A DNA stretch of 64,000 bases from Macrostomum lignano (Eukaryota). The notes under the pieces were generated by a model. It did no database searches. It saw only the letters and a program-made list of their open reading frames with translations, and was not told the origin of the DNA. Shown in pieces: positions 30,718-58,444 of this stretch (the first letter of the stretch is position 1; the number at the start of each line of letters is the position of its first letter). Both the position numbers and the translations under genes were made by a program. Location of the stretch: NCBI GenBank assembly GCA_002269645.1, contig NIVC01001264.1, positions 186,001 to 250,000 on the forward strand. The letters run 5' to 3'.

Positions 30718-33700
30718 TTACTAGACAAAGCCAAGACAAGAAAACTGCAAAAATGGTAGACTACTTAACCAGATTACTGACTCATACAACCTGCATCTAA
30801 TCAATGGTAGATCACTATCAGACACAAATGGTGAATTCACCTTTCTCTCAAAATCTGGTTCTTCTGTTATAGATCTCTGTTTCGTCTCTACCAGCTTACT
30901 CCAACACCTTAAAGACTTTAAAGTAAAGAACCACACCTACTTTAGCGACCACAACCAAATAGTGCTCTCCCGGCCTATCAAGTGAATTCACAGAGGAAAT
31001 CACAGAAACTAAACAAGCAACCAATAACTCGAAAACGAGATACAGAGTCCTAAAAAAGTCACATAAACCCAACCTGCAACAAGAAAAACATATCAATAAC
31101 TTCGCAAATGACCTGAAAAACATGCATGACAAAATCACAAATCTAGACATACAAAATCCAGCTTTTATAAATGAATTAAGTAGAAAAGTTAGACAAATTC
31201 AAAACAACATCACAGTAGAGATAAAGAACCCACTATGCTCAACACTGCCTCGCTTCCTTAAAGATTTAAGAAACGCTGCTAGACATGCCTGCAGAAGATA
31301 TAAAACCTTCCCTACTCCCAACAACCTCTCAAGCAAAGTACAACTCAAAAAAGCATACGAAAAAAAGCTCACTTCATGGAAATTTGAAACAACTCTCTGT
31401 GCAGACAACATGATCAACCAGGCCTTTATTCAAAACGATACAAAACAACTTTGGAACCTATTAAAAACACCAAATCACTCAAACAACAGAGTAACAATTG
31501 ATGAAAAATTTGTCATACACTTTCAAAATCTTGTAACTGAACAAGACAGCAGCATTAGACTATCATACGATCTTCACCTTGACAACCCTATTCTGGCTGA
31601 TTTAGAGGCTTTCAATGCCCCATTCACCAAAGAAGAAGTTATAAAACATATTAAAAAGCTCAAAACCGACAAAGCACCTGGGCACGATAAAGTATATGTA
31701 GAAACACTCAAATACCTCGAAAACGAACTTACTGACTTCCTATGCTCACTTTTCAACGAAGCACTCAAACAAGGAACCTTCCCAACTAGTTGGATTACAA
31801 ATACACTTCATCCGATTTATAAAAACAAAGGCAGCAGTGCCGACCCCAACAATTACAGAGGAATCTGCATTCAACCTCTTTTGCCAAATTTTAAATCCAG
31901 ACTCGAAAACCTAGCATACGCAAACAATCTTATATCAAAATACCAATACGGTTTCAAGCCCAATCACAGCACAATCGACCAATGTTTTAATCTTTACAAC
32001 ATTATAAACCAATCCATCTACAACAAAGAAGAACTCTTTATTGGATTTGTTGACTATGAAAAAGCCTTCGATAGCTTAAATCAACCGACCCTTTGGCACA
32101 AAACGGATAACCAGGGTATTAAAGGTCAAATGACGGAACTTATCAAGAACATGCATAAAAATGCCTGCTTCATTCTAAAAAAAGATAATGATGATGATGA
32201 AACCCAGCCAATCCCAATATTTAAAGGTGTTCTTCAAGGCAACCCTCTCTCTACCATCCTTTTTGACCTATATATTGACGACATTGTTGAATATCTTGAA
32301 CTCTCTAGCGCTAGGCGCTCTCTTACGAGATCTGCTTTCCCACTCATCCTGCTCTTTGCGGACGATCAAGCCATTCTAGCTAAAAACAAAGACGAACTTC
32401 AAGACACATTTACGACTATGGAAAATTACTGCAAGCAAAATTACTTGAAAGTAAACGCAAGCAAAACAAAGTTTATGCAGGGCAATACCAGACAAAAAAA
32501 CGATACAGAAAGCATTGCTACAAAAATATACTACGACAACCAAGAAATAGAGGAAGTAAATGAATTTAAATACCTGGGAATTATTTTTGAACCAAAAAAC
32601 AGCTTTAAAAAATGTATTGAATACCAAACTAAGCAGGGATATACAGCCATGTTTTCCCTACTCCATAGGGTAACGAATACGTCCCTAGACATCACACTCA
32701 TTCGCAGACTATTCGACGCGCTTGTTACCCCCGTTATCACTTACGGCTGTGAGCTCTGGGGCCCTCTGGCTACCATGTCTGACACAAAAGCTATTGATAA
32801 TATTCAGCTGAAATTCTACAAATATCTCCTCAATCTACCAAAATTTGCTAGCAACAGTGTGATATCATCAGAACTTGAGCTTACTCCAATCTCCCAACGA
32901 ATTGCTAAAACCTATCTTACCTACTGGCTGAAGATTAGACATCAAAAACTTTGCCAAACGACACTAGAAATTTTCTACTCAAACACCAGCCAAAAAAATC
33001 CATGGAAAACAAATATACTAAAGAAACTGGAAAGTATAGACTTAAAAGCACTAACTGAAGATAAACTTTCCCAAAGCTTTAATAACGAGAAATACCTAGT
33101 GAAAAAGCACCTCAAGATACACAGAGAAAGAGAACTTAGCCAAAAGCTAGAGAATCAGCAACATATTAAACTCTACAAAAACGCCTATCTCTACAAAAAA
33201 ATCTGCAGGCCCGACCTTTCAGATTACTTTCCATGCACTTTTAGAAACAAAAAATTCCTAACAACCCTCCTAAAACTGAAATGCGAAATTACACCCAACA
33301 TTTTCTCTCATGAAGCATGTAGACTGAGTGGAGCGAGAAATGGTTCCGATATCCTACACTACTTGACCGAATGTCCACAAACCGCAAAGATCAGAAAAAA
33401 ATACTTCTGTCAGTACCTCTTAAATGACAAGCAAGTACACAAGTTAGGATATGCTACAAATGAAAAAAGAGTCAGAAAAGAGCTCACTGGTGTAGCTAAA
33501 ATATATGAAGTCATGAATAGCTAAAACAGTTATGCAAACTGAAACAGACATATCAGCAGTGTAATAAATCCGCTTTTCATTTGTTTTATTCATTTACTGC
33601 CTTTTTAATTTCCTATTTAATTAGCATTTAATTAGTATTTAATTAGTTTGCTATTTAATACCTATTTAAATCGTCGTTATTCGCTAAACGTAAAGTTCTT

Positions 33701-35960: not shown

Positions 35961-37084
35961 CTATGATCGCCTAAACCTATATATACATTAGCATTAGGTT
36001 AGGCTAACACTTATCTATAGCCATAGGCCATTGCCCATACTTGATGTTGATATACTACTTATGCTATATGCTATGCATAACCAAAATTTTCTTATAATCT
36101 ACATTCAAAATACATGCAATAGTTTTTACAATTTATCTATTTTATCTATTTTTCAAATGACCAATTTATTGCATAGCCATAGGCCTATCTTATTTATAAC
36201 TATAATATATAATTAATTTTGTATGTTATAACTTTTAGTAGGCATAATTTAAAATCCTAGGCCTATATATGAAAATAGTTTTTCCATGATTTACTATAAT
36301 ATAAGAAAAAAATAGTAACAATAGTTTTAACCTAACTTAAGTCTTTATTAATATCATGCTAACTATATAACATGGATTTGTATAAAAAATCTATTGCTTT
36401 ATAACCTAACCTGGTTAGGGTTAAGGTTAGGTTTTTTGCTAGTGCCAGGATGCAAAATCATATCCAAGGTACATGTTAAAGATGCAAATTGGATAGTCAA
36501 GAAATTATATAAGATAAATATTGCATTAAAAAACCTAGCCTGGGTGCTGGGATATAAAAGGTCTAATTTATTTTAAGATGCAGTTTTGATAGTCAATATG
36601 CTATAGTATCTCTATTGCATAAAAAAGAAACCTAGTCCCTGACCTCAGAAACTAAAGAGCTATATTTGCATTGAAAATGAAAAATATTCATTTTAATTTA
36701 ACTCATTGTAACTATTCAATGTGCATATGGCATCAAAAATTGTCTTGTTTGAGTCCCCAACCTTAGAGACTTAAGAGTTCCAGGTTCATTAAAGATTTAT
36801 AACTGGCTATACTCATTTGTTTCTATTGCTTAAGTCTTTCAAGTCTCTGTTATTGAGTTGTCAATATTACTAAATTTGGAAAATATTCATTTTTATAATC
36901 ATATTATTCATATGCTTTATATCTAAAAACCTCTATCTGTAAGTGTAACTTCCCAATAGCCATATCCATAGCTATAGTGGAATAATAGCTTTCAGAAATC
37001 GTATATCAGAATAACATGAAATCTGCTCAAACTCATTGTTGTCCTATTGCTTACCATTTTCATGCTCAATCATCATCAGTGAAA

Positions 37085-37536
37085 ATGGAGCAGTACCTGG
37101 CCTGTCTAGAGCAGTTCTGGTCAAACACAGACCAAAATTTGCTAATAGATTTTGCTCTACCAAATTGCCTATTAACTGAACCATGCGTCCTAGGCATTGA
37201 CGAAGCTGGCAGAGGGCCAGTCCTTGGTCCCATGGTCTATGCTTGCGCTATTGGTCCACTGGAATCTGGCGAACCCCGCCTAAAGACTGTTGGCTTTGCC
37301 GATTCCAAGACGCTGACTGAGGAGCAGAGAGAGTCGCTGTTTGAGGCTGTAAACACGCCGCCTCTGTGCGATCAGTTTGGCTATTTTGTCAGTGCGCTGA
37401 GTCCGCACTATCTAACTAGCAATATGCTGGATTTGCCCAAAACTAATCTCAATACAATGTCTATGGACGCTGCTGTTGGATTAGTGCAACGGGCTATTGA
37501 TAGAGGAGTGCGACTGCAGCAAATCAAAGTTGATAC
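37085..37536 (+). CDS. RNASEH2A: Ribonuclease H2 subunit A, exon 1 up to the MITE insertion
   Basis: LGIDEAGRGPVLGPMVY, GFADSKTLTE, NLNTMSMD and IKVD motifs (catalytic D, E, D). Confidence 0.95.
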
Positions 37537-37815
37537 CCTGATTGCAGCGCATGGGCATTTTGGCGGACGGCGTCCGGCGCGGGTCTAATATGGCACGGCG
37601 CGGCGCGTACGGCGCGCGGCAATTAGTACGGCGCGGCGCGGTACTAATTAGATGCCGAGGCATTTAGGCTTGATAAGACAGTTATAGTTACTCCTGCCGT
37701 TTACCCAAAACTGCATTAATTTTGCTTTAGGGTTTCTTTCACAGGTAAGTCATTTCACAGCGTGGCGCAGGTTGTGTAGGCGTCTGGCGTACTTAAGCCA
37801 TGCGCTGCAATAGGG
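37537..37815. mobile_element. 279-bp MITE inserted in the RNASEH2A coding exon
   Basis: TIR CC(TG/CT)ATTGCAGCGCATGG; direct repeat GTTGATAC at 37529-37536 and 37816-37823 (7 bp if the terminal C belongs to the element). Confidence 0.88.
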
Positions 37816-40869: not shown

Positions 40870-42460
40870 CTTCGTGTGTTCCAAAGAAGGAGACACTGAT
40901 TCATAGGCTGTGTACATTGACAATGCAGGGTATTGCAGCACGCAGGGTAAGGTTGGCTTTGGTAGACGTGCGGATTTGCTTGGTTCGCATTGTTCATATA
41001 TGTGCATCGATTTTTTTTCTTGCTAACTGCTTCTATGGGGATGTATAGACGACGTAATCAGAGATAGGGTTTTGGTTGGAGGAGGCTCAATATATGGGTC
41101 CGTGCGGTGAAAAAATCTGCTTGCTTCGTCAAAATGTACATTGGATTGAGAGAGAGGCCGGTCGAATTTCGTTGACAGCTAGAAATGGAAAGGTTTGGTC
41201 AGAGAATAGGGGTATATGTGTGTTTTGGCTCTATTCAAAATGGGTCTGTGCTGCGAAGACGAGTCCATTGACCATTGGGTGTTGGCTGTTTTGCCAATTC
41301 AGCATACTGAACCTGTCAAGCTGATTGCCTCATGAGTCACTTTTCTGGGTATGTGTAGGAGAGAGAGGCCTGGGAGAGACAAGGGCTCGATTTGGTAAAA
41401 AGATTGACTCGATTCTGTTGGGTGGGTCCTCTGGCCCCATTCGTATTGGCTAATTTGGCGAATTGGCAAATCTACTTGCATTGGTTAAATTATTGAATAT
41501 GGTCAGAGTTGAAGAATTTGGAGGATGAATCAAGATGTAAAGTTGGCAACAACAACACTGATTCACCACATCTAAAAGATGACTGCTAGGAGCTTCGGAA
41601 ATAATACTACTGTACACAGCAGCATCAACAAAAGGTATTAAATTGTCAATCGAAATCGACCCGTAGATGTGCGATTTTGCATGGTTCACAGTGTTCATAT
41701 GTGCATCGAAAAATTTTGTTTCTTGCTAACTGCTCCTATGGGGGAGGGGTATGACGTAATCAAGATAGGGTTTTGGTTGGAGGAGGCTCAATATGGGTCC
41801 GTGCTGTGAAAATATCAGTTTGTACACTGAAATTGGAGAGGGAGGGTCGGAATTCCTTGACAGTTAGAAATGGTAAGGTCAGAGAGACAGGGACGAGTGG
41901 TTCTGTTCTACATGGGTCTGTGCTGTGAAGACGAGTCTAATGAACATTGTGTGTTGGCTGTTTTGCCAATTCAGTAATAAAACCTGTCCAGCTGATTGCC
42001 GCATGAGTCACTTTTCTCGGTGGGTGCAGAAGGAGAGAGAGAGGTCTGGGAGGGACAGTTTAAATGTCAATCGAAATCAACGGACCGCTTCGCAGACTGT
42101 ATATGTTAAAATTATTATAGCTAGGTTTATAGCAAACTGTACGTTTTAACCCAATATTCAAGAATAATCCTTCCCGACTTCTTGAGGGGTATTACACGTA
42201 CCAAATACACACATTTGAATGATGAAACAGCATTTTTGACGATTAAGTTGTAAAAATTATGGTTTCTGCTGATGAAGTGATTAATTTTGTTCAATAAAGT
42301 CTGCATTTTAACGTTAAAAAGAGTCAAAACTGTGAAAAATTGACCTTTTTAAAACGAAAATGTGCAATTTCTAGTAATTTAGCTTTCAATTAAAATGTTT
42401 TGGGTGGAATTCCAACTTGGGCAGGGGTGTGCATATAGAGATCAGTGTGTGACTCATTCC
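40870..42460. repeat. Long-unit degenerate repeat (~700-bp units) plus the first ~250-bp satellite monomer; continues beyond the Maverick
   Basis: GACGTAATC..GGGTTTTGGTTGGAGGAGGCTCAATA at ~41050 and ~41750, with a homologue at ~60215; GACACTGATTCATAGGCTGTGTACATT at ~40890 and 60061. Confidence 0.75.
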
Positions 42461-42844
42461 AGTAGAAGGCATGAGGGGGCTTCTGGGACAAAATTTTTCA
42501 CCTCCTCCATAATCCACCTAAATCCATCCATATTATCCCTGACAGAATCAGAAAAAAGGGGGGTCGCACTCGCTCACAAAACATCCTCCATAATCCACCT
42601 AAATCCATCCATATTATCCCTGACAGAATCAGAATTAAAGGGGGTCGCACTTGCTCCGAAAACTTCGAACATAATTCTATTAAATCCATCCATTATTATC
42701 CCTGACAGAATCAGAGCATAACAGATGTCCACTAACACCTGTTATGCTCATTGACACCGACATCCACCCATAACATTTCTAAAACAATCAGAAAATAATC
42801 TGCATTCTTCTCCCCACATTCAATTCGCAACGCGAAATCAGATC
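42461..42844 (+). repeat. Left TIR of the Maverick, with internal ~75-bp repeats
   Basis: Reverse complement of 58445-58851; outer ~90 bp identical. Confidence 0.92.
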
Positions 42845-43035
42845 GTAGTTGCCAACTACAAGGTAGTACCTTGTTTACGTAAGTTCTACGTAAAAATAAA
42901 ACCCATGCCATGCGCTCCACATGTGCTTTCCATTCTCTCCATTGGCTGAAGTTATAAGGTAGTACCTTGTAGTTGCCAACTACAAGGTACTACCTTGTAG
43001 TTGGCAACTACATGCAACTGCCGGGTATATAAACA
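42845..43035 (+). promoter_or_regulatory. Palindrome cluster plus TATA box upstream of the first Maverick gene
   Basis: 41-bp palindrome at 42956-42996, GTAGTTG-N-CAACTAC at 42845 and 42997, reverse CCAAT at ~42941, TATATAAA at ~43025. Confidence 0.65.
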
Positions 43036-43108
43036 GCCGATTCACACCGCACCTCGCCCCGCCTCGACTCGCCCTGCCTCGCCTAGCCTCACCTTGCTCT
43101 CTTCTGTC

Positions 43109-43398
43109 ATGAATTCGAAGGCGAAACAGCAGCCGACAAAAATTATCGATACAATTAAAAGTATCAGTAGCAAAGACATCGCAAGCACGGCTGTCGCGAT
43201 TACCGCCATTAACGAAGAGGAGCGGGCCTCACTGTTTGAATGCTTGCAAAAAATCGATCGTGAATCGTTGAAAAAAGAGAAATCCGACGAGGCCAAGCGC
43301 TCCAGTAATGACAAGGAGCGCCGAGAGGCACGCTTCATAGCGCGTCTAAAAGAGAGTCTCAAAAAAATTAAAAATGAGCAGATCGACATCAAGACGCG
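43109..43398 (+). CDS. Maverick orphan gene, exon 1 (charged helical region)
   Basis: ATG 43109 (MNSKAK); donor CG|GTAAGT at 43399. Confidence 0.75.
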
Positions 43399-43536
43399 GT
43401 AAGTTTTTTTTGCTTATTCTATTATTTGCAATCCTTGACTTGGTTAAAACGTGATTTAAATTACTTAAGGTTTTTATGATTTCTAGAAAGCGAAACATAT
43501 TTTACATTATGATTCCGTGTTATTGCTTTTTTTTAG

Positions 43537-43987
43537 TTTCTACAACGCTAAAGCGTTATGCTTGGCCGACGTTCAAACGGATGTGGACGGAATGTTGACG
43601 CAGTTCGCCAGTTTAGAGTCCTTCATTGGGGACTTGGAGGTGCTCACCTGTCTGGCGAGAAAAAAGCAGGCGGAGATCCTCGCGTCTATTAAGACCCAAG
43701 GTCTCTCAACAGAAGGAGCCGCCAAGCGACTGGACATCGACCCCAAGTTCGCCGAACGACTGTACACCTTCCACGGGTTCATCAGGAAGTACCCAAATTT
43801 AGTCTTCTCCGGGTACTCGTTCGAGTCGCTGCTCACATACAAAAGAGCGATCGAGAAAGAGGCGGAGCAGGACGACAACTTCTGCTGCAAGTTGGAGACT
43901 GATATTGCCATCGTGTTTGAAGGAGAGAACGAGGACGCCTTGCTGGAGGAGACTACGATGGAGTTGGCGACTGCATCAGTCGACTAA
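43537..43987 (+). CDS. Maverick orphan gene, exon 2 (HTH-like segment, acidic tail)
   Basis: Acceptor T-rich TTTTAG 43535-43536, in phase with exon 1; STEGAAKRLDIDPKFAERLY; acidic C-terminus. Confidence 0.75.
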
Positions 43988-44039
43988 GCCAAGGATGAAT
44001 AAACTAAACAAATTGTAACGTAAAAAAATTAATCCTGTT

Positions 44040-44910
44040 ATTTTACCTTGAAAACTAGTTTACATTGATAAAATCCTGGAAAAAAATCCTGGAGATCCAG
44101 GAAAGTGTTTAGAGGACTACTATGAGTAGTTTACATTGATAAAATCCTAGAAAAAAATCCTGGAAAAAAATCCTGGAGATCCAGGAAAGTGTTAGAAGAC
44201 TACTATGAGTAGTTTACATTGATAAAATCCTGGAAAAAAATCCTGGAAAAAAATCCTGGAGATCCAGGAAAGTGTTTAGAAAACTACTATTAGTAGCTTA
44301 CATTGATAAAATCCTGGAAAAAAATCCTGGAAAAAAATCCTGGAGATCCAGGAAAGTGTTTAGAGGACTACTATGAGTAGTTTACATTGATAAAATCCTG
44401 GAAAAAAATCCTGGAAAAAAATCCTGGAGATCCAGGAAAGTGTTTAGAATTTTTTTCGAAGCTAAGCCTACTCGTAGTGTTTTCAATGTAATAATAACTG
44501 GATGAATTAACTAAGCAAATTATTATAAGTAACTTTGAACAACTTTGTATTAATGTTTTTTTGTTTATTAACATAAAATAAAATATTTAACCATGCTCTT
44601 CACTTATTAAAATTAAAAAAATAATCCTGTTATTTTACCCTGAAAACTACTATGAGCGGCTTACATTGATAAAATCCTGGATAAAATCCTGGAAAAAAAA
44701 TCCTGGAAAAAAATCCTGGAGATCCAGGAAAGTGTTTAGAACTTTTTTCGAAGCTAAGCCTACTCATAGTAGTTTTCAATGAAATAATAACTGAATGAAT
44801 TAACTAAGCAAATTATTATATGTAACTTTGAACAACTTTGTATTAATTTTTTTTTGTTTATTAACATAAAATAAAATATTTAACCAAGCTCTTCACTTAT
44901 TACAATTTAA
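44040..44910. repeat. Internal non-coding repeat region of the Maverick (TCCTGGA modules with the palindrome TCCTGGAGATCCAGGA; ~300-bp duplication)
   Basis: About 7 copies of TTACATTGATAAAATCCTGG..TCCTGGAGATCCAGGAAAGTG. Confidence 0.9.
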
Positions 44911-44944
44911 TATCGATGAGTCTTTTTTTTAAATCCTTTCCGAC

Positions 44945-45433
44945 TCAAGCGTCTCTCTCTATCCCCATATCTTTCAGCAGTCTTCCTAGTTCCTCGTTTG
45001 GAGCACACAAAATAAACCCTGTTCCCGAGCACCCCGTGCACCCGCCCTCTCTCCCCAAACACCCGCCCTCGGCGTACACCCCCAACCCCAGTTTTGTCTT
45101 ACTAAAAATAACAGCTTTAACTAGCTTCCGAGCGATCGACTCACGAAATCCGCTTGAAGCCCCTATATTGTCGAGTCTCCTGAGCATTTCTTTGTCCCAA
45201 CGATTCTTCTCCTCAGGAAAATCTCTATACTTAACGTCGTGCCACATGCAGACAGAGTCTAGCTCGTTCACAGGCTCATGCCCAGGATGTGGATTATTGT
45301 TTTTATCTAGCTGTATTTCAAGTGGATTCAAAGGCCCGCAATATTTATAGCCGGGAAGTGTCCAGCCTTTGTTTGGATGAGGAAGCTTTTCTATCAGTCC
45401 ATGTGAATCTATTTTACCACCAGAGCGCTGCAT
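44945..45433 (-). CDS. Parvovirus-type phospholipase A2 protein (162 aa)
   Basis: LPGYKYCGPLN Ca-loop-like motif and PVNELDSVCMWHDVKY (HD dyad) followed by D; likely ATG at 45433. Confidence 0.88.
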   Translation of the reverse strand: MQRSGGKIDSHGLIEKLPHPNKGWTLPGYKYCGPLNPLEIQLDKNNNPHPGHEPVNELDSVCMWHDVKYRDFPEEKNRWDKEMLRRLDNIGASSGFRESIARKLVKAVIFSKTKLGLGVYAEGGCLGREGGCTGCSGTGFILCAPNEELGRLLKDMGIERDA

Positions 45434-45463
45434 TATTTTATTTAAAATTTTCTTTTTAAATAA

Positions 45464-46459
45464 ATGACAGATCAGAAACTTAAAAAACTCTACTACAGCG
45501 ACAAAGGTTTCTTTGTAGGCAAAAATGCCGTTAGTAAACTCATGGAGCTGAGTAAGGAACCAAAAGCTACAGTAGAAAAATGGCTCTCTAAGCAGGCTCT
45601 CTTTCAAGTCTATTTCCCACCAGTAAAATTTACAAGACCTCACTTTAGCATCTATAAACCTAATGAAGCGCACCAAGCAGATCTTTTGTTTCTCCCCAAC
45701 GACTCAGGCTACAAGTATGCTCTTACAATTACAGACGTTGCCTCCAGATATAAGGAAGCGAGACCGCTTAAGACGAAGAAGTCAGAAGCAGTTGCAGCCG
45801 CCCTCCAAGATATTTATAAAAACTCTCCGCTCACATACCCCCAAATCTTTATGACGGACCCGGGTAAAGAATTCTTTGGGGCAGTGAAATCACTTCTACA
45901 TAAGTATGACGCAAAAATTCGCTATGGCAGAACTGAGCTCCACAGAGACCAGGCTTTTGTGGAAAGATTCAATCTAACTCTAGCCAAGAGACTATTCACT
46001 AAGCAGACAGCTGAAGAGCTGAAACTAAAAGGTGGTCAGTACTATACCAAGTGGACAGACCGGCTCCCCACTGTTATAGAGCAACTGAACAATGAAGTCA
46101 CACGCATGACTGGATTGAAACCATCCCATGCAATTAAACAAGACACTGTCGAACTTAAGTCATCTCATAGAACAGACACCTCGAACTACCCTAAGCTTCC
46201 AGGAGTTGAATCACCATACATACTGACAAACTCTGAGTTTCTACGCTTTTTATATCTACCTGGAGAGCTAGAGAAGGACACCAAAAGAAGAGCTACAGAT
46301 CCATACTTCAGCCTTGATGTACATAAAATAGACAGACATTTTACCTCCGACTCCGGTGACTATTACTTTTTATCTCAGGCCTTTAACCCTAAATCCCCCA
46401 CGCGGTCATTCACTAGAGCTGAACTCCTAGTGATACCAGCTGACACGGAAATTAATTAA
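45464..46459 (+). CDS. Retroviral-like (RVE) integrase
   Basis: HQADLLFL, TITDVASRY, MTDPGKEF and FVERFN (D,D,E); intact 331 aa. Confidence 0.95.
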   Translation: MTDQKLKKLYYSDKGFFVGKNAVSKLMELSKEPKATVEKWLSKQALFQVYFPPVKFTRPHFSIYKPNEAHQADLLFLPNDSGYKYALTITDVASRYKEARPLKTKKSEAVAAALQDIYKNSPLTYPQIFMTDPGKEFFGAVKSLLHKYDAKIRYGRTELHRDQAFVERFNLTLAKRLFTKQTAEELKLKGGQYYTKWTDRLPTVIEQLNNEVTRMTGLKPSHAIKQDTVELKSSHRTDTSNYPKLPGVESPYILTNSEFLRFLYLPGELEKDTKRRATDPYFSLDVHKIDRHFTSDSGDYYFLSQAFNPKSPTRSFTRAELLVIPADTEIN

Positions 46460-46475
46460 AATATTAAAATAAAAA

Positions 46476-46922
46476 ATGACAAAGATTGAAACTAGAACCC
46501 TCAATAAACTCAATAAAATCATTGAATCAAAGAAACCAGGTCTTATATCAATTAAAGGTGCCAAAGTAAAAGTCGATCCCGTGCAGCAAATAGTTCAGTG
46601 TAATGAGCAAAGACACAGCATCACAGATGAAAAGTCAGGAGGAATCCTACCATTAGCAGCTCTTATTCCGATCATTGCAGGCGCTGTAAGTGCCGCAGGT
46701 GGTGTAGCTGGAGGTGTAGCAACTGCTGTTAAAGCTGGTAATGATAGAGCCCACCAGCTGGAATTGCAAAAGATTGCAAGAGATAAAGGTATAACAATTA
46801 AGGCAGGAGAGGGCTGCCCGGATTTTGATGATTGTGAGCATGAAAATTCTGTAAGCAAGTCTGACATTGTCAAAGCCATCATGACATTGCACAATGCTGG
46901 GTTTACAATAATGCGTATGTGA
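46476..46922 (+). CDS. Adenovirus pX-like virion protein
   Basis: GGILPLAALIPIIAGAVSAAGGVAGGVA resembles the adenovirus pX C-terminus GGILPLLIPLIAAAIGAVPGIA. Confidence 0.65.
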   Translation: MTKIETRTLNKLNKIIESKKPGLISIKGAKVKVDPVQQIVQCNEQRHSITDEKSGGILPLAALIPIIAGAVSAAGGVAGGVATAVKAGNDRAHQLELQKIARDKGITIKAGEGCPDFDDCEHENSVSKSDIVKAIMTLHNAGFTIMRM

Positions 46923-47006
46923 TGAGGTTTTAAACCCCACGTTATCCAGCTTCATAAACCTAACGCTACTTATAGGATGTAGAAACAGTTCAACTTTTCT
47001 ATCAGG

Positions 47007-50000
47007 GTGGTCACCCTCAAAAATTTTTTTATATTTTCGAGAAAAATGCCAAAAGCCAATCCAGCAAGAGATTTAGTCAACAAATATTTTTCGTCTCATT
47101 TACCCTACCCTACAACCTTACAAGGCGTCTCATTTCAAGAAAAAAGTAATTTACTAAGAGAAGCATGTAAACAAAAGTTTAACACCGACCCCGGTCACCT
47201 GGGAAGCTATGAAAAACAGTTGGAAATCATCAAACAATTAGAATCCAACCAGTATGCGCCTATACAAAATCCTGCAAAGGAACACCAAGAGAGGAGTCGC
47301 AACTTAGTTAACAAATATGAAACTCTCACTGGTGAAAAAGCAAAGTACCCACAAAATAAGCAGGAACAAGAGAAATTAGAGCAATTAATCCATTTAAAAG
47401 AGTCGGAGCTTGCCATTGAAGAGATTAATTTTGCACAGAGGAAGTTTACAGAACATTACATAGAGTACACGATCCCAATTAACGGCACCAACGGTACCAC
47501 CGCAAATATCTACGACTATAAAGACAGCATCCAATCAGTTGTTGATCACACACTCAAAACACGCAAGACCTTTAAACTACAGATATCATTTAAGATTGCA
47601 TTTTATATGCCTGCAAAACCCACTGAGCATCTCGAGTATTACATGACAACAAAGGCAAAGCCATTCACCCCTACAGACACACTGGATTCTTTCCTTCAAG
47701 ATGTCACTAAGAAAATTGAAGCGTTTACATCCAGAGGTTCCGGATGGGTCGTAGGGGGGATTCAAAGAGCGACTGTCATGGTCATGAAATATGACCCACT
47801 TAAAGCCTCCTCTTATATAGAGCTCCCGCATAAGCTAGCCGGTAAAAAAGCTTGCATAAATGTTAAAAATAAAGACAATTGCTGTGCTCTATGGGCAGTT
47901 CTTTCTGCACTTCTTTATGATAGTGTCCCTCACCACCCCGAAAGAACCTCAAATTATCAAAATTATTTCAAGGACTATCTCATCGAATGCGAAAAGAAGG
48001 GAATCAGGTTTGACAAAGGAGGCTTGGCGATCTCTCAGATCCCAAAGCTAGAAGAAGTGTTTAATAACAAAATTAGAATCACAGTCTTTGAGTGGAGTGA
48101 AAAAACTGAGAAAGTTCAACCGGTCAGATGTAGCAAAGACGTTTTAGATCCCGAGGGGAAAAGGCGGACTGAAGTGGATCTTCTAGTGATTGGTAATTTA
48201 CTAGAGGAGGCTCACTATGTTTGGATTAAAGATCACGATTAATCATCACGAGGCTGTTGCCATCTGCCGCTTGTGCCTTAAGCATTACAGTGGACCTGAA
48301 CGCTTTGAAAAGCTAACAGAGCATGAATTATCATGCGAGGATCACCCGACAAACTGCTCTCTTCCTTCAGCTGAAGAGAAGTATCTCCGTTTTAAGAACT
48401 ATCACAAGATGGAGAAGCTCCCATTTGTTGTATATGCTGATTTCGAATGCTCAATCGTGCCAGAGACTCAAAAACAAACTCATACTCAAAAACAAACTCA
48501 AACTCAAAAACATGTCCCCAACTCAGTAGCATATGCCTTTATTACTACAAAAGGACTTGTTGAGTATAATTATTTCTTTGGAGAGCAGTGTGTGGAGCAG
48601 TTTATTGCCAGAATGTTAGAGCTGCAAAAAGTGATTAGCACCCTTCAACCTGTTCCAATAAGTATGTCTGAGGAGGATGAAAGCAATTTCCTATCAGCAA
48701 CTCATTGCCACATCTGCAGGAAACATTTAACTTGCACTGATTTTAAAAACCCCACCGTTAGGGACCACTGCCACTTTACTGGGAAATTTAGAGGCGCAGC
48801 GCATAACACCTGTAATTTAAAGCTAAAATCGAACATTCATGATCTAACGATATTTTGTCACAACGCAAAGAACTATGACATGCATTTAATAGTTGAAAAA
48901 ATCGGCATGATTCCAGACATACACCTTGATTGCATCGCAGAGAACAAGGAGAAGTTTAAGTGTGTTGATATTAAACAGGATAATTCGGGTACAGGTAAAA
49001 TAAGACTGAAGGATTCATATCAATTTCTAGCTGCCAGTCTAGACGAACTAAGCAAGAATCTAAAAGATGAACAATGTACATATACAAAGATATTTGCAAG
49101 TCAAATTAACAACAGTGATGAATCATTTAAACTTTTAAGAAAGAAAGGCTTCTACCCCTATGAAAATATTACTGGGTATCACGTATTTGAAGATGGTTTA
49201 CCACCACAAGAAAAGTTCTTTTCAAAGCTAACAACTCTGGAATCTCTGACAAAGACTATGAGCACGCGAAGCATGTCTATAATTACTTTAATTGTCAAAA
49301 CTTTTTCCAGTATCACCTGCTTTACCTCTACACAGATGTGTTTCTGCTGGCCGATGTGTTTGAAACCTTCAGAGACACCTGGTACACAGCATATGGCCTC
49401 GATCCAGCACATTATGTGTCTCTCCCTGCCACTAGCTGGGAATCTTTGCTTAAAATGAAATGGGATCAAGATCCAGATTGGTACATTGAACTTCTTACAG
49501 ACATTGACATGTACAATTTTGTCGAATCGTCAAAGCGAGGGGGATCTCAATTTGCGTTAACAGGTATGCAAAAGCAAACAATCCCTACATTGAATCTTAC
49601 AATAAGGAGCAGCCCTCAAACTACATTACTTACTTGGACGCTAATAATCTCTACGGGTGGGCGATGAGTCAAGATCTTCCAGTTAGAGATTTTCGATGGT
49701 TACCCTCATCAGAATTCAAATGGGACTTTTCATTGGCTGCCATTTATGAGGTTGATGTTTACATTCCACCAGAGCTTCACGATTATTTCTCTGACTTTCC
49801 ACCCTTCCCAGAGAACATCAAGTGCCCGAAAATAATCGAAACTCCCAATGATAATAATGGAACTTGGCGCTTGTCAGGAACAGAAAAAGAACATACAGAG
49901 AAACTAACACAGAATCTAAACAACAAGACACGTTACAAAATCCATTACAAACTGCTTAAGTATTTTATCTCACAGGGTTGCAGGGTCACCAAAGTTCACA

Positions 50001-50912
50001 GGGCTCTTACATTTACAGAGGAAGCGTGGATGAAACCCTACATTGATAAGAACACCCAGTTTAGGACCAAAGCAACCAACGACTTTGACAAGAACCTCTT
50101 TAAGTTAGCCAACAACTCCGTCTATGGCAAGACTCTTGAGAATGAGAGGAAAAGAACAAACCTGAAACTTGTTACCTCATCAGAGCCTGCTGTTATTCAG
50201 GCAAATATGTCAAAGCCAACGTTCAAAGAACTCCATATCTTTAATAGCTACTTAGGTGTGATCATATTTTACAAAACCAAGGTGACGCTGCGCAAGCCGA
50301 TCTATACAGGTGTCACTGTACTCGACGAATCAAAACGTCTGATGTATCAGTTCTTCTATGGCATGAAGCAGCAGTACAAGGATAAAATGAAACTTTTGTA
50401 CACTGACACAGACAGTTTTATTATGGACATTCAAACAGAAGACATTTATCAGGACATGCTGCAGCAAAAAGATTTTTTTTGACTTGTCTGAGTATGATGA
50501 GTCTTTCAGGACACAGAATGGCGATCAAGTGTTTGACGCTACTAACAAGAAAGTGATTGGGAAAATGAAGGACGAGATTGCTGGTGACATAATCACTGAA
50601 TTCATTGGGTTGAGAGCAAAGTCCTATTTTGTAAAATGTGAGTCGTCAGACCCAATTAAAAAATCAAAGGGAATTCCGAAACGTGTGGTTAGGAAGGAAC
50701 TTAATGAAGCTGAATACAGAGACGCCTTGAATTGTAACAAAAAGACATCACATGAGTTCTCAAAGCTACAATCTAAAAACCATATTATTCACACAATTCA
50801 GCAAAAGAAGATTGGATTGTCAGGTGCAGATAACAAGAGATTCATTTTTGATGACAATATCAACAGTCTGCCGTTCGGGCACTGGAGATTAGGTTTAGGA
50901 GGTGGAGATTAG
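47007..50912 (+). CDS. Protein-primed family B DNA polymerase (4 frameshifts in this assembly)
   Basis: Exo I VYADFE, Exo II HNAKNYD, Pol DANNLYG, KLANNSVYGK and YTDTDS; breaks at ~48235, ~49230, ~49540 and ~50478; probable ATG 47046. Confidence 0.95.
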
Positions 50913-50985
50913 GCTTAGGAGGTTGGGTTTAGGAGGTTGAGATTGGGTTTAGGTTTAAGAGAAAGTTTAATAAACCTCATAAAAA

Positions 50986-51387
50986 ATGACAACAAATAAC
51001 TTTCTTGAAGATTTGGCTAATGAACTGGAAATCCCAAACTTTAGAGGAATATTTATGAGGGACACTCTGCCTGATTTTCCTCTAAGAAAAGAATGCGGCA
51101 TCATGAACTTTGACAGCACTGATAAGCCAGGATCTCATTGGGTTTGCTGGGTGATTGATCCCGATCGCAAGCACAAGTGTTATTACTTCGATAGCTATGG
51201 GACGGCAGTACCAGAAGAGCTAAGAAATTATATGAAGGGAAAAAAGAATAAAAAAATTTATCGCTCAGACTTTATTCTCCAAGGTCTTAGCAGTGATATT
51301 TGTGGTGAGCTGTGCATGACTGTTTTGTATGCAATGACCAAAACACGAAAGACCTACAAGGAAATTATTCTTGGCTGTGTTTCATAG
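50986..51387 (+). CDS. Adenain/Ulp1-like cysteine maturation protease
   Basis: GSHWVC (H), YFDSYG (D) and LQGLSSDICG (Q, C); intact 133 aa. Confidence 0.93.
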   Translation: MTTNNFLEDLANELEIPNFRGIFMRDTLPDFPLRKECGIMNFDSTDKPGSHWVCWVIDPDRKHKCYYFDSYGTAVPEELRNYMKGKKNKKIYRSDFILQGLSSDICGELCMTVLYAMTKTRKTYKEIILGCVS

Positions 51388-51430
51388 GGGTTCATTGTGC
51401 ATTTCTTGCCGACTTTCTTTCCGCATAATG

Positions 51431-52045
51431 TTAAAGAACTTTCTCGAGTTCATTTCTCAGCTGACTCATGTCATCAGTACCGACCATGTTCAAGTTCATT
51501 CGAATTGATTGTTCATAAAGATCCTGAATGGTTTTGAACTCATCCTCTGAAATGAACTTATCCTCGATTGCCCTTGAAATGTACCCTATGATTGAAGTGT
51601 GCACCCCTTTCTCTTTTACTTGCTTCTCCTGTAGCTGCTTTAGTTTTTTTCGCCTGTTTCGCGCTAATGCTCCAGTAATTGCTGAAATAAGTCCACACGC
51701 AGCACCCACAGAGCCGAGCGGAATTGCGATTGGGGCTGTGATGACTGGCAACGTTGAGACAGCTGCAGCAGATCCAGATAGAACAGACACAGATCCTAGA
51801 ATCATATTGCTGTAGTCGAAAAATTTACAGTGGCTGTCATAGCGCTTAATTTTCTTTGTGTTGTGGAAAATATTTTTTTCAAGATCATCACGCATTTTTT
51901 GAATCTCCACCAGTCGAAACTGTTGAGAGTTACAAGTAATGACGGGGTAGAGTTTTTGTTGCTCATATTGAGGTGCACTAGGTGCTGTGGGAGCTGTGGG
52001 TGTTGTGGGAGCGTTCGGATCATAAAGAGAATTTTGAGCATCCAT
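51431..52045 (-). CDS. Maverick PW-type conserved helical/membrane protein
   Basis: FRLVEI, central hydrophobic hairpin and ISRAIEDKFISEDEF motif. Confidence 0.75.
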   Translation of the reverse strand: MDAQNSLYDPNAPTTPTAPTAPSAPQYEQQKLYPVITCNSQQFRLVEIQKMRDDLEKNIFHNTKKIKRYDSHCKFFDYSNMILGSVSVLSGSAAAVSTLPVITAPIAIPLGSVGAACGLISAITGALARNRRKKLKQLQEKQVKEKGVHTSIIGYISRAIEDKFISEDEFKTIQDLYEQSIRMNLNMVGTDDMSQLRNELEKVL

Positions 52046-52154
52046 TTTTTAGGAAATTTTTAAAAAAAAATCGACAACTAGTTGGTGGTGTTAGATTTGT
52101 TTTACGGTTGATTGCTTCGTCTGCAGTCACGGCAACGGGTCTCTTCGAATTTGC

Positions 52155-52898
52155 CTATTCATTGTCTGTGAGCTCCATTCTACGTCTGATCTCAAACAAG
52201 TCGGTTGGATCACTTATTTCCCTTGTGGTCTGTGGTGCCTCTTCAGCGTCAATGTTTTTGAGATTATGCAAGCGTTCAAGACGACCGATTCTTCTCACCG
52301 ATTTCTGCCATTCGGTAAAAACTAAATCTACAAAGACTTTATTTGCAGTAATTCTTACTTTGATTTGATCATGCAACGCTGTTGACTGAGTCATGAACTC
52401 TTCTAAATTCCTCACTTTACATGTGTTGGTTGCGATGTTTTCTTTAATTCTATCATGCAACGCTGTTGACTGGTTCATGAACTCTTCTAAATTCCTCACT
52501 TTAACTGTGTTTGTGAAAACTCCTTCTTCAAGAATGCGCATCCGTCTATCAGTGGAATTTCTCAGAAGATTAATTGTCGATGCTAAATTTGTTCTTAAGC
52601 CGTTGATTTGCGAGACTGCCGAAGTTATTTCTGACCTAAGTTCATTAGTTGCGTGTACAACCTGTACATAAAGCTTATCACTTTCAAACTTCTGCCAGGC
52701 TACTTTTATGCGGAGATCTTCTATGTTTATCTGTAGCTGGTGCATGGAGCGCTCTAATTGTTTCAGTCTGTTTTTATTCAGTTTGATCTCTGGGATCTTT
52801 TCGTCGCTGTTGATATATCGCCTGTCAAGGATGGATATCTGAGCTGATGTAAGAGCGCTGTTGCCAGAAATGGATTCACCTGCAAAGTTTATCGACAT
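52155..52898 (-). CDS. Coiled-coil protein with an internal ~28-aa duplication (fibre/spike-like candidate)
   Basis: Heptad-rich; NT.KVRNLEEFM.QSTALHD.IK appears twice. Confidence 0.7.
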   Translation of the reverse strand: MSINFAGESISGNSALTSAQISILDRRYINSDEKIPEIKLNKNRLKQLERSMHQLQINIEDLRIKVAWQKFESDKLYVQVVHATNELRSEITSAVSQINGLRTNLASTINLLRNSTDRRMRILEEGVFTNTVKVRNLEEFMNQSTALHDRIKENIATNTCKVRNLEEFMTQSTALHDQIKVRITANKVFVDLVFTEWQKSVRRIGRLERLHNLKNIDAEEAPQTTREISDPTDLFEIRRRMELTDNE

Positions 52899-52914
52899 CT
52901 TTTAATAGCAAATT

Positions 52915-53715
52915 TTAAATTACAGTTCTTTTTTCTTTGCTGATAATCACAAACTGGTAAGGCTGATTCCACTTGTCATAGCAAAGATTAACGAATTCCT
53001 CTTGTGAAATCTTTCTGCTTGAGTTTTTTGTTGGATTTATGAAATAGGCAGGCGCAATGACCTCATTGTAAAATCTTTTTACCTGTCCTGTGGAATGGTT
53101 GGAAACAGGAGAATCAGATTGCAGTTCCCACGAATTGTTTTGTTCGGGAGCTCGAACCAATTCTGTGCAATGTAAATTACATTACAATTGTTATGTCGCC
53201 CTCTTGTAAAATAGTTTTCTATCTGCTTCTGTGGGCCTGTCATACAATCATCAAAGACGATCAAATGCTTTCTCCCCTTTTCTAGCTCATCTGGTTGGGG
53301 TAGAAGTTTGGTCTTTGGATCAGCCTGTGGATCTCCATAGGTGAACACTTTAATGTTCTGCCATTTTTCATTGTCTTTGAGGTGTTTTGCATATTCAGCA
53401 GCTACAATTTCTGGGTTACTGGGAAGGCTTTGTTGGTTATTAAAACATGCAATAATGTCCTCTTTGTTCAGCTTGTTTTGAAGCCCTGCAATCAGCATTC
53501 TATACTCATCTTGATACAGTGTGGGAGAGTAGATGTGCAGAGTGTCATAGTCGATAAAGCCAGGTCTAAGAAGCATGTTAAAGACTCTGAATGTTTTACC
53601 TGAACCTGATGAACCAACAACAATGCATCTGAAGTGACTCGGGATTGACTCGTGATGAGAAAACTTAATCTGACTACGCGTCCAGTGAGGATTGAAGTCG
53701 TTTGAGAAGTCCATT
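52915..53715 (-). CDS. A32/FtsK-like packaging ATPase (1-nt frameshift at ~53082)
   Basis: Walker A GSSGSGKT, Walker B LIVFDD, TRGRH and IRGNCN motifs; one added G restores DRVKRFYNEV; likely start MDFSN. Confidence 0.93.
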
Positions 53716-53754
53716 TTTTCTATGATTGAAAAAAAATTAAATAATAAATCATTT

Positions 53755-53925
53755 AGAAGATGTGTCATTTCGGGACTTGAATGTGTCGTTTTGGGACTTA
53801 GATGTGTCATTTTGGGACTTAGATGTGTCATTTTGGGACTTAGATGTGTCATTTTGGGACTTAGATGTGTCATTTTGGGACTTAGATGTGTCATTTTGGG
53901 ACTTAGATGTGTCATTTCAGGACTA
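53755..53925. repeat. 21-bp tandem repeat (TTTTGGGACTTAGATGTGTCA), ~8 copies, upstream of the ATPase
   Basis: Direct inspection; this repeat creates the spurious THLSPKM N-terminus in the ORF track. Confidence 0.95.
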
Positions 53926-53967
53926 GTCTTATACTCTTACATGTCTTGTACCCTTGAAAAGTACCCT

Positions 53968-54345
53968 TTAGTCAAATTTAAAACTGCTTCCCTTTTTAAT
54001 GCTAGCTCTCATCTTCTCATAGACTGCAGGGTCCACATTGTCTGGATTTGGGGCCAGCGGAGCCAGCGGTTGAATCTCTTGTTTAGGTGTTACAGTATCC
54101 TTTATCTTTTTGGCTGCTGTGGCTACACTGCCAGCCGCTTCGGCAACGTTCTTGATGTTCTCTTTGTTCTCTCTAATGACCTTAAAAATCTTGGCCCCCT
54201 GAGCGATCAAATCGGCAAGACCGTTCCCTGAGCGTTCTTTTCTTGGATAGTGGCCTGCAGGGAAAAGTCCAGATCCGCGTTTAATGAGATTAAGTTCCTC
54301 TTTGTCATAGTATTTGTCAATGTCTTTTTCGAAAATAAGTGGCAT
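53968..54345 (-). CDS. Small basic/amphipathic virion protein candidate (125 aa)
   Basis: ATG 54345 after AAAAA; KRGSG and RSGNG motifs followed by an amphipathic LADLIAQGAKIFKVI helix. Confidence 0.65.
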   Translation of the reverse strand: MPLIFEKDIDKYYDKEELNLIKRGSGLFPAGHYPRKERSGNGLADLIAQGAKIFKVIRENKENIKNVAEAAGSVATAAKKIKDTVTPKQEIQPLAPLAPNPDNVDPAVYEKMRASIKKGSSFKFD

Positions 54346-54361
54346 TTTTACTTGAAATAAA

Positions 54362-55591
54362 TTATTTTTTGTTGAACCGCGAAAGCAGAAGCTCTCTCGC
54401 CCTCTTATCGATGTATTTTCTCTCAAGCATTTTATTGAGGATGTGAACGAACTCTTTTCTATTCTCATCTTTCATTCCGGTCTTTGCTGCTCCTAGAAGA
54501 ACCGCTACTCGCTTGTAGATTTCAGCTATTCCTTTTCCAGTTGAAGGCGGTTGGTCTTGAGGTTGTGGAGTTGGTTGGGCTTGTGGCTGCTGGGGAGGTG
54601 ATGCAAAAGACTGCTCACTTTCAGAGATGGAACTGTCATGTGGCGCCTGTCTTTGTTGAGGTGTGAAAACTCTTTGCTTGATTCTGTTCATTCGATCTGG
54701 AGAGTGTTGTTCTAAGAGTTGCCAGGCATCTGGGTGATCATTTTTATATTCAGCTACTTTCAAAGGGTCTAACTGCTCGAGTTGACTGAGTACTTGTTCT
54801 TCTGTGGAATGTTGCTGCTGTTGTGGCGGTTGCTGTTGTTGTTCTAGATATTTCATCTGATCAATGACTTCCCCCTGATCTGGCAAACCAAACCATTGTT
54901 TAAAGTGCTTGTACTTTTTGAAATTAGTCAGGTTGACACCGCCATCGTACATGTGTTTCAGAACTTCTGGGACCTTTAGTATTTCTATATCTCTAGCAAG
55001 AGAAAAAGTCACTAGATCTCTGTAGTTCTTTAGCTGTTTGTCCGAGATTCTCTCTTGGTTCTTGGTCATAAAATTCAGTAAGGTTTCTGTGAAAGGAATG
55101 CTCTTAGTTTCCGAGCCTTTGACAACAGAAATATGTTTCTTATTTATGTCGATATAATATTCCACTGGTTCATTATAAATGTTTTTTCTCCACATACTTA
55201 TTCCAAATACATATTTCCCATCATGTTCTACACGCTCTACTGGTCCAAAAATGTTATCTGTCACTTTTAGTTGCTGTTGTTGTGGTTGTGGTTGTTGTGG
55301 TTGTGATTGTTGTAGTTGCGGCTGTATCTGTGGTTGCGGTTGTATCTGTGGTGCTTCTGGAATTTTGCCCAAAGCCTTTTGCACCTGGGTTTCCTGTATG
55401 TCGTCGATAGTTTCTTTGACCTGATCAATATTTTTCTTAGCTTCTCCATACCCGGGTTTATGAAACTCTGTAGCTGCTTGGACAAACTCATTGTAGGATT
55501 GTTGCTCCTTATTTATTAGCCCGGTAACTCGTTTCTCTGCTTGTGCTAGCTTCTTCAATTCAGATATCTGCTGTGTACTTTTTCGCTTCAT
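54362..55591 (-). CDS. Maverick PZ-type protein (Q-rich)
   Basis: N-terminal helix ending FHKP; C-terminal GKG..RVAVLLGAAKTG..EFVHILNKM..YI resembles the PZ C-terminal motif. Confidence 0.65.
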   Translation of the reverse strand: MKRKSTQQISELKKLAQAEKRVTGLINKEQQSYNEFVQAATEFHKPGYGEAKKNIDQVKETIDDIQETQVQKALGKIPEAPQIQPQPQIQPQLQQSQPQQPQPQQQQLKVTDNIFGPVERVEHDGKYVFGISMWRKNIYNEPVEYYIDINKKHISVVKGSETKSIPFTETLLNFMTKNQERISDKQLKNYRDLVTFSLARDIEILKVPEVLKHMYDGGVNLTNFKKYKHFKQWFGLPDQGEVIDQMKYLEQQQQPPQQQQHSTEEQVLSQLEQLDPLKVAEYKNDHPDAWQLLEQHSPDRMNRIKQRVFTPQQRQAPHDSSISESEQSFASPPQQPQAQPTPQPQDQPPSTGKGIAEIYKRVAVLLGAAKTGMKDENRKEFVHILNKMLERKYIDKRARELLLSRFNKK

Positions 55592-55622
55592 TTCTTATTT
55601 TATTTTATTTTTAGTTAAAAAA

Positions 55623-56909
55623 ATGAACGACCCACTGACACCAGTTTTCTACAAAATTAACAAGCCTATTTTGAGTGATGATAGCACAATCAAAGCGACT
55701 CAGGTAAGAGTTCCCAGTCAGGAAAATCAGAATGAAACTAATCTTGGTCCTGGCCAAACACTGACATTCACATACAATGGATGTTCGTCTTTGGTTAGTG
55801 TGCACAGTTTTAAGAGCGGCTTCCATATGACATTTCAATTCAAGACAAAAGGTGGTGCGGATGCGGCTCGTGCTAACGTTGACAAGCATGATGCGGATGT
55901 GGCTCTGATCAGTAACTTTTGGGCGTACATGTTCAAGGAGTTTAGTGTATCGAATGGGAGCACAGAGTTGGAGCGAATCGCCAACTTTGGAATTGTCTAT
56001 GACGCTCATTGTTTGATCGAGAATCCTGATTTTATTCAGTTGGGAAGTGGTGCGGGTTTTATTGCAGATGAAAAAGAAGGAGACATCAATGACAGTGGCT
56101 ATAAAAAGAGGAAGAAGAGATACAACTATGCATTGCAAGGTGCTGATGATGCTGCTAAAAACCCGCTGTATCGGTCTGTTGATGTATTTGTACCACTGAG
56201 ATTTATGAGTGGATTCTGTAATAAATTTAATCGACTGACTAGTAACTTTAGCTACACATTTAGACTGACTAGAGATGATCGCAGTAGAGTGTTGTGGACT
56301 GGGGCGGACCACACTGGGATGGAGGTGAAGCTAACCGGAATCGAGCTGTATTTGGAAGTCATTGAGCCAAAGACTGCACTAAAAGCGGATTATCTTAAGG
56401 CAATAGAGAAGGACATTGATGTTGCATACACAGCCTACATGTGTCGAGATGAGCGAAACGAAACTAGAACAAATATCTGCATTAAAGAGGGATCATGCAG
56501 CAATCCAAGGTATATCATTATTAACATGAGAAACCCAAATAGCATTATACGCTACATGCATGGAGACGTGCGGTCCATTCAGCATGAAATCAGTGATAAT
56601 CTTTACCCTGCACTGCCACAAAATGGAGATTTCAGTCAGAACAAGATTAGCAAATTTTATAGCGAGTTGGTCGACTTGGCTGTGAAAGAGAACAATGGAA
56701 TTGCTATCACTGCTCTTCAATATGGAACTCTATATCCGATGTTTGGCGCTGATGTGTCTGCCAGACAAATGCCTACTGATAACAGCCCTGTGAATATCGT
56801 GACTAACATTGAGAGGACTGACGCAACACCCGTGGACTTGTACATTATCTATGCATTTGAGAGGAAGGTGAAGCTTAACATGATCAACAATTCATCCAGT
56901 AAAGTTTAA
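55623..56909 (+). CDS. Major capsid protein (double jelly-roll)
   Basis: Intact 428 aa; SDDSTI, NPRYIII and LYPMFGADVS motifs; located next to the penton and ATPase. Confidence 0.85.
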   Translation: MNDPLTPVFYKINKPILSDDSTIKATQVRVPSQENQNETNLGPGQTLTFTYNGCSSLVSVHSFKSGFHMTFQFKTKGGADAARANVDKHDADVALISNFWAYMFKEFSVSNGSTELERIANFGIVYDAHCLIENPDFIQLGSGAGFIADEKEGDINDSGYKKRKKRYNYALQGADDAAKNPLYRSVDVFVPLRFMSGFCNKFNRLTSNFSYTFRLTRDDRSRVLWTGADHTGMEVKLTGIELYLEVIEPKTALKADYLKAIEKDIDVAYTAYMCRDERNETRTNICIKEGSCSNPRYIIINMRNPNSIIRYMHGDVRSIQHEISDNLYPALPQNGDFSQNKISKFYSELVDLAVKENNGIAITALQYGTLYPMFGADVSARQMPTDNSPVNIVTNIERTDATPVDLYIIYAFERKVKLNMINNSSSKV

Positions 56910-56930
56910 ATATTTTTTTGTGGGTGAAAA

Positions 56931-57804
56931 ATGGAAGCGATTGCTGAAAGACTAAATAATATTATTTCGCACTCCAAGGAGAGCATTCCTATTACAATAA
57001 CTGGGCGAATTAATGACTCAAACGGGATATTTATTCAAAAATTAGAGCAGGTGATTAGCCTGGATCCAGGTGCTAATTATCATGTCTATCTTAACGACTT
57101 CACTGGTTGGTCAAACGTTCCCAATGTGTCGGCAGCAAATAATAAGTTTTATTACAAATGGAAAGGTGCAGCAGCAGAACCTGTGGTATTCCCTGTGAGC
57201 ACGCAAAGTGTGGATACCTACAATTACTTTCTAGAAAACGTCTTTACTAAAAGAGGCCATTTTGAGACACCTGATGCGAGTAAGCCAGATAAAAAACTGT
57301 TCCCTGTCAAACTATCCTATGATCTCACTGTAATGAGAGTGGTCATGCAAGTTCACAAAAATGCGGAGGTTGAGTTTAAAGATGACACTTGGTATAGGGA
57401 ATTAGGATTCGAGAAGAAAGTTTATAAGGAAGAATCCGCGGCGCGGACCGCCACTCAAGCGACGGGGGCCGTTATCATGGCCCGGGAAAGTGTACGCGGT
57501 TTGTTCTTAGCACCCAATATAGCAGACATTGTAAAGGGTTTGAATATTCTAATCAGAACTAATCTCAGTCTTGATTGGGTATTTAAGGGAAAGCGAACGT
57601 TGTACAATGTTGTCGTTGTACAACATCTCCAACTCTGTAGCTGGAGGACAGACGGTGGTAGAGAAACCAAATCCAGTGAAAAGAGTTGTATTGAGTAATA
57701 AGGAGATTCACGAGATTGTGCTACAGTTTGAGACTGAAGATGGGGTGGGTGTTGATTTCAACGGTGAAGAGTTTGTATTGACGTTGATCATTGAGAGAAT
57801 GTGA
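56931..57804 (+). CDS. Minor capsid protein (penton), frameshifted by a 16-nt insertion
   Basis: WSNVPNVSAANNKFYY; C-terminal GQTVVEKP..I..I..GVDFNGEE..LTL; removing 57608-57623 restores RTLYNISNS. Confidence 0.85.
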
Positions 57805-58378: not shown

Positions 58379-58444
58379 TTTTATTGAGAATTTAATTTTT
58401 TTTCAAAGGGTAAGGACCCTGCGCTGATGATTTAAAGTCTTTGG

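Follow-up and report, generated by a model that had tools for sequence, protein, structure and literature searches.

A spliced gene occupies the cargo slot of a 16.4-kb Maverick/Polinton element in the flatworm Macrostomum lignano (contig NIVC01001264.1, assembly GCA_002269645.1; the window analysed is the whole 64,000-nucleotide stretch from 186,001 to 250,000, forward strand). The gene (window positions 43109-43987) is the first past the left terminal inverted repeat (TIR) and belongs to a highly variable, apparently undescribed cargo family of the helix-turn-helix (HTH) type; the kind of slot is already known. We favour, at an even balance of belief, a reading in which the product of this optional accessory gene, a homodimer that probably binds DNA, tunes the element's own transcription. 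We know of no account of how integrated Mavericks control their own genes.

The gene is spliced, and it lies in a Maverick slot. As an initial annotation of the bare sequence had anticipated, exactly 138 nt bounded by GT..AG are left out (joint 43398/43537) in contigs of all four presumed RNA runs, which come from four studies. The shorter side of the spliced joint spans at least 255 letters in two of these runs and just 29-30 in the other two. The type of each run was guessed, no listed run being recorded as RNA, and the transcript evidence consists of assembled contigs. The joint is found in neither of two unlabelled DNA-like runs, whose contigs continue from exon 1 into the intron; unspliced contigs are also present in runs X1 and X3. 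The donor, GGTAAGT with the cut after the first G, occurs only once in the element, both strands counted, and a T-rich tract precedes the AG of this GC-poor intron (GC 0.25). Read without splicing, the frame of exon 1 ends at a stop at 43402, whereas the joined exons, whose phases match as annotated, give 741 nt in frame, i.e. 246 residues and a stop instead of the approximately 247 residues proposed. UniRef holds the spliced 246-residue protein of a sister copy, differing at one residue, and word-indexed protein searches returned six matches, this protein among them, all labelled Macrostomum lignano. Among the 15 listed of 43 element-wide joints, this intron provides the sole GT..AG joint, which is consistent with intronless core genes, also part of the initial annotation. 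The TATA box noted there is indeed present. The GC-richer codons are likewise real for this gene, with a GC content at third codon positions (GC3) of 0.56 in exon 1 and 0.73 in exon 2 against 0.32-0.47 in 16 other open reading frames (ORFs) of the element; because GC3 ranges from 0.37 to 0.72 among homologues, GC richness is, however, not a family trait.

The surroundings of the gene were compared with sibling elements, chosen through the 40 top-ranking matches to the capsid gene (98-100% identity), which gave 34 left-side stretches, 21 of them with both an element end and the phospholipase A2 (PLA2)-like or integrase gene. Similarity to siblings with other cargo is lost at the TIR and regained at the PLA2-like ORF, which delimits the cassette (Table 1). 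One of the 21 left ends carries a spliced member (64% identity), ten carry distant intronless ORFs or remnants, and two a RING gene that shows intron-like signals; of the others, two have nothing recognisable and six are close to empty. A family member is thus absent from 10 of 21 left ends, and in eight of these elements, both ends having been scanned, the right end is without one as well. As judged from these sequences, alleles have been swapped among near-identical elements and the gene is dispensable in cis. Profile comparisons indicate that the distant slot ORFs are related to the family of the spliced gene. Six of their frames rank just below the clear members among 7541 frames (domain profile, E 0.002-1.7), hhalign matches them to the family with 87% probability (E 4e-6, residues 141-213), and their own profile matches P0024 at 26 bits. 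For slot ORF L021, against which 141 of 200 shuffles score as high with the full-length profile, the link runs only through the domain profile and hhalign. The product of the RING gene has a RING finger of the C3HC4 type (in Pfam, E 5e-7 for locus L088 and 1e-9 for L093), and splicing of the gene is predicted.

Initially described as an orphan, the gene turns out on sequence comparison to belong to a wider superfamily within the genome. Exon 2 has 98 matches there at 26-100% identity (135 candidates scored), of which 50 were inspected, namely the top 30 and 20 picked from lower ranks. Of these loci, 44 have Maverick core genes or TIRs no more than about 10 kb away, five have no Maverick core nearby and one was not extended; the linked ones include lineages whose PolB is just 24-40% identical to that of the window. 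At E<=0.001, a profile run against 1.84 billion representatives returned 20 matches, five of them unnamed proteins with 17-25% identity. Viral contigs (one stretch confirmed, no locus returned), metagenome contigs and phages yielded no relatives. Of 16 pairs compared, five with measurable dS have a ratio of nonsynonymous to synonymous rates (dN/dS) of 0.12-0.22, showing, at the level of sequence, purifying selection; two that differ by very few changes have ratios of 0.84 and 0.91, and the remaining nine have a dS that is saturated or zero.

Several observations concern the family more broadly. Members with or without the intron are present in distant Maverick lineages (L067, L073, L074, L131, L133, L137, L146, L148, L149), whose core proteins are 24-50% identical to those of the window. 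At least two members are found in a span of about 20 kb on each of the contigs C2523 (L038, L044), C273, C1391, C1113 and C954; on C2523, alleles with 99% and 63% identity to that of the window lie 15 kb from one another in facing orientation and probably occupy opposite ends of one element. Cysteine-rich RING-like ORFs (L138:1935-3124, L140:7602-8123, L076:605-1288) occur close to family members, and in the vicinity of two of these members there is no Maverick core; these ORFs are possibly relics of another cargo cluster.

The intron was likely gained once within a Maverick-borne lineage. In homologues it interrupts the same codon and measures about 60-230 nt, often not a multiple of three; in a few copies the donor is changed. 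Synonymous sites are saturated between these subfamilies. In a tree of 36 exon-2-side sequences, excluding near-duplicate and interrupted copies, 14 intron-bearing rows fall on one side of a branch (98/97), separate from 11 intronless rows of four lineages. With four distant intronless ORFs as outgroup, the same intron grouping is obtained (94/98) and the outgroup branches are long. Approximately unbiased tests did not reject other arrangements or fix the branching order; a single gain is nevertheless the simplest reading because all scored lineages outside the clade lack the intron. Ten near-identical copies show 12 indel events in the 138 nt of intron and 8 in the 741 nt of coding sequence, mostly single-base and of little weight. 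Introners are known in dinoflagellate polinton-like elements (PMC12166617, in its available part). The ends of the present intron bear no terminal inverted repeat and do not support an introner origin. Three unnamed Logan/ENA proteins (P0010, P0015, P0016) correspond to single exons of intron-bearing homologues, the exon-1 products stopping at the donor, which indicates that further data sets contain the intron clade as well.

The product is predicted to form a coiled-coil homodimer with two HTH heads, dimerising through the helix N-terminal to the HTH. In the model of this compact protein (P0004), residues 1-90 are helical, and the HTH-like segment first spotted in the sequence appears as a helix (155-162), a turn and a second helix (166-181). 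The best structural neighbours are DNA-binding HTH domains, with central domains of the ParB family at ranks 1-7 (ParB/KorB/VirB/Noc; 8qa8, 3w2a, 1r71, 7ng0, 2ntz, 1vz0), at scores under the level that shows homology for helical proteins. The fold check proposed for the joined protein thus yields an HTH-like model, but no Foldseek match at E<=0.001 in PDB or BFVD. In sequence searches of Pfam, PHROGs and PDB, neither the protein nor its relatives reached the cut-off for any family. An End3 match (E 2e-4) was dismissed as a coiled-coil match; the Pfam profile of DUF3102 (PF11300), another candidate, gave no match, and the ESM Atlas score of that family of 0.89 is a lead only.

Candidate sites lie within the cassette itself. 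The 15-bp palindrome directly upstream of the TATA box has three matches in the window, against 0.01 expected by chance, and is present at 23 of 50 family loci and in none of 54 sibling end stretches. It is common to alleles with very different recognition helices and absent from some close alleles; given this distribution, it may have been inherited as part of the promoter sequence or be a site for a host factor. The 84-bp array downstream accompanies some alleles only. In the reading that we favour, host RNA polymerase II would transcribe the gene from the TATA box of integrated copies and the spliceosome would excise the intron; the protein would then dimerise, enter the nucleus by means of its K/R-rich helix and tune transcription by binding element targets, for which the cassette palindromes are candidates. 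The gene is a concrete transcribed regulator candidate with candidate sites, and dozens of natural alleles are available on near-identical backbones.

Alternatively, the protein may be directed at the host, binding its chromatin, proteins or RNA and weakening silencing or defence, with allele diversity reflecting host conflict. Identity between alleles falls to about 20%, against at least 98% for the capsid genes, and the RING gene with intron-like signals suggests that this may be a general host-interaction slot. In the available part of the nematode work, the cargo of this slot is host-acting enzymes. The top named lead in the ESM Atlas, PF01818, the family of T4 RegA-type translational repressors (score 0.92), points the same way, but with 138 shared features it stays below 170 and finds no structural support. 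The DNA-binding HTH neighbours and the palindromic repeats of the cassette itself also argue against a host target, and we consider this alternative rather unlikely. In a more daring analogy, drawn with the immunity regions of temperate phages, this eukaryotic slot could be a swappable cassette in which a dimeric HTH repressor is paired with palindromic operators of its own and is expressed from integrated copies. Its divergent alleles would then define immunity or latency groups among Mavericks that are otherwise near-identical, one clade having gained a spliceosomal intron within the element; we hold this to be unlikely.

The ParB-like neighbours, the predicted homodimer and the tandem palindromic sites flanking the gene on both sides raise the possibility that dimers on repeated cassette sites tether or organise an excised element copy in the nucleus. 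However, the N-terminal CTPase domain of ParB is absent (no Pfam match, and a helical model for residues 1-90), dimerisation is predicted to involve the pre-HTH helix, many elements lack the gene and only some alleles have the 84-bp array, which makes such a role improbable. The same holds for an E1A-like immediate-early activator, required to start the element's gene programme; the initial annotation had proposed an immediate-early activator or repressor by positional analogy with adenovirus E1A. The position stands, together with the TATA box, the splicing and the acidic tail, and such an activator could act in trans on copies without the gene; yet eight siblings have no member at either end, and the acidic tail is variable in the family (D/E fraction 0.13-0.43 over the last 30 residues). 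Among 13 proteins searched for E1A/Oncoid motifs, P0004 has none; LxCxE is confined to the distant P0020, and P0022 alone has a CR1-like match. E1A is largely disordered, whereas P0004 has a compact fold. Finally, that the gene is a recently captured host gene, as the epithet 'host-like' might suggest, or part of an independent transposon is very improbable: the intron, the high GC3 and the five of 50 loci without nearby Maverick genes would fit, but the cassette borders coincide with the siblings' slot borders, several Maverick lineages, including the more distant ones, have intronless relatives, the intron lacks terminal inverted repeats, and neither a transposase nor a named cellular homologue was found among database matches.

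The element itself has TIRs, a 6-bp target duplication and the core genes of Mavericks/Polintons (integrase, protein-primed PolB, packaging ATPase, protease, double jelly-roll capsid). Pfam searches identify the PLA2-like ORF, the rve integrase, a pX-like ORF, PolB, an adenain-type protease, an A32 ATPase and the capsid; rve, Pox_A32 and Peptidase_C5 exceed the cut-offs, and DNA_pol_B_2 (E 7e-5) and DJR-like (E 2e-5) are slightly under. In this copy PolB is broken into four ORFs. An 80-residue ORF (58136-58378, minus strand) lies inside a subterminal repeat that most siblings have at both ends; the left end of the window's element has the palindrome block in its place. A 21-bp tandem repeat (53737-53945) extends into the 5' end of the ATPase ORF. 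The element is inserted within a repeat of about 250 bp (42222-42460 and 58852-59770), and an empty-site joint (42451/58849) found in the DNA-like runs may represent an uninserted allele or another copy of that repeat. The flanking DNA holds a hAT dimerisation fragment (4968-5657), a long terminal repeat-type integrase (18639-19592), a reverse transcriptase ORF (31122-33524), an RNase HII-like ORF (37016-37588) and an inverted repeat of 259 nt without mismatches (14256-14953).

Table 1. Features of the element, its slot and the spliced gene (window positions unless a locus is named).
Feature	Position	Strand	Remarks
Maverick/Polinton element	42461-58851	.	16.4 kb; TIRs and target duplication
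Target duplication CATTCC	42455-42460 and 58852-58857		6 bp
Left TIR	42461-42844	+	87% identity to right TIR
Right TIR	58445-58851	-	
Variable cargo slot	42845-44930	+	sibling similarity ends at ~42844, returns at ~44930-45080
15-bp palindrome GTAGTTGNCAACTAC	42845-43011	.	three copies (42845, 42969, 42997); candidate binding sites
TATA box TATATAAA	43026-43033	+	83 nt 5' of ATG; promoter block common to other slot alleles
Exon 1 (residues 1-97)	43109-43398	+	290 nt, phase 2; short helices and long K/R/E-rich helix
Intron	43399-43536	+	138 nt, GT-AG, phase 2; spliced out
Exon 2 (residues 97-246)	43537-43987	+	451 nt; predicted dimer helix, HTH, helical bundle to ~218, acidic tail
Predicted dimer helix 113-150	43583-43696	+	structure model
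HTH 155-181	43709-43789	+	structure model
AATAAA	43998-44003	+	putative polyadenylation signal
84-bp tandem array with palindrome TCCTGGAnnTCCAGGA	44041-44450	+	downstream of gene; partial copy 44642-44775
PLA2-like ORF	44945-45433	-	PF08398, E 1e-13; inner border of slot
rve integrase	45464-46459	+	PF00665, E 1.6e-10
RING gene, second cargo type	L088:2149-2713, L093:1917-2477	+	two-exon-looking; GTAAG donor, predicted 87-88 nt intron

No publication on Macrostomum Mavericks or on this gene family was found, although the supplements of PMC8502044 could contain it, and the literature searched yielded no Maverick transcription regulator; HTH cargo is not mentioned in the available parts of PMC10748475 and 10.64898/2026.10.13.758929. 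The motifs LxCxE, CR1 and CxxC are defined for the adintovirus Oncoid proteins in the available part of PMC8502044. As with Oncoid and adenovirus E1A, the flatworm gene is a small accessory ORF upstream of PolB, left-end, TATA-driven and spliced, and PLA2-like and pX-like genes likewise occur in its element. Unlike them, it lacks LxCxE, CR1 and paired CxxC, has a folded coiled coil and HTH instead of short linear motifs, and is not present in every genome of its family. Intact vertebrate Mavericks, as far as the available part of their description goes, share with it the presence of TIRs, a duplication of 6 bp at the target and core genes without introns, and no introns were seen in them (PMC8097293); the spliced accessory gene sets the flatworm element apart.

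The closest precedent, which limits the surprise, comes from nematode Mavericks, where, in the available part of the study, a GC-rich, poorly conserved region of 2-5 kb flanked by the left TIR and integrase holds intron-bearing cargo such as WASP proteases and KRMA kinases, and transcription of Maverick genes was not detected (bioRxiv 10.1101/2022.07.12.499685). The flatworm slot agrees in position, low conservation and size (about 2.1 kb), and in its genes with introns, the spliced gene and, by prediction, the sibling RING gene. Its GC is mixed: the exons reach 0.46-0.52 against 0.38-0.48 in the core, and the whole slot 0.38. In contrast to the nematode case, spliced contigs exist for the flatworm gene. 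Its cargo is a helical HTH superfamily, not an enzyme, intronless in most lineages and with no cellular homologue found, the distant database matches coming without genomic context. Very divergent alleles, moreover, replace one another among near-identical elements of one genome. These comparisons extend the nematode cargo-slot architecture to flatworms, with a cargo that looks element-borne rather than host-captured and a likely case of intron gain within a Maverick gene.
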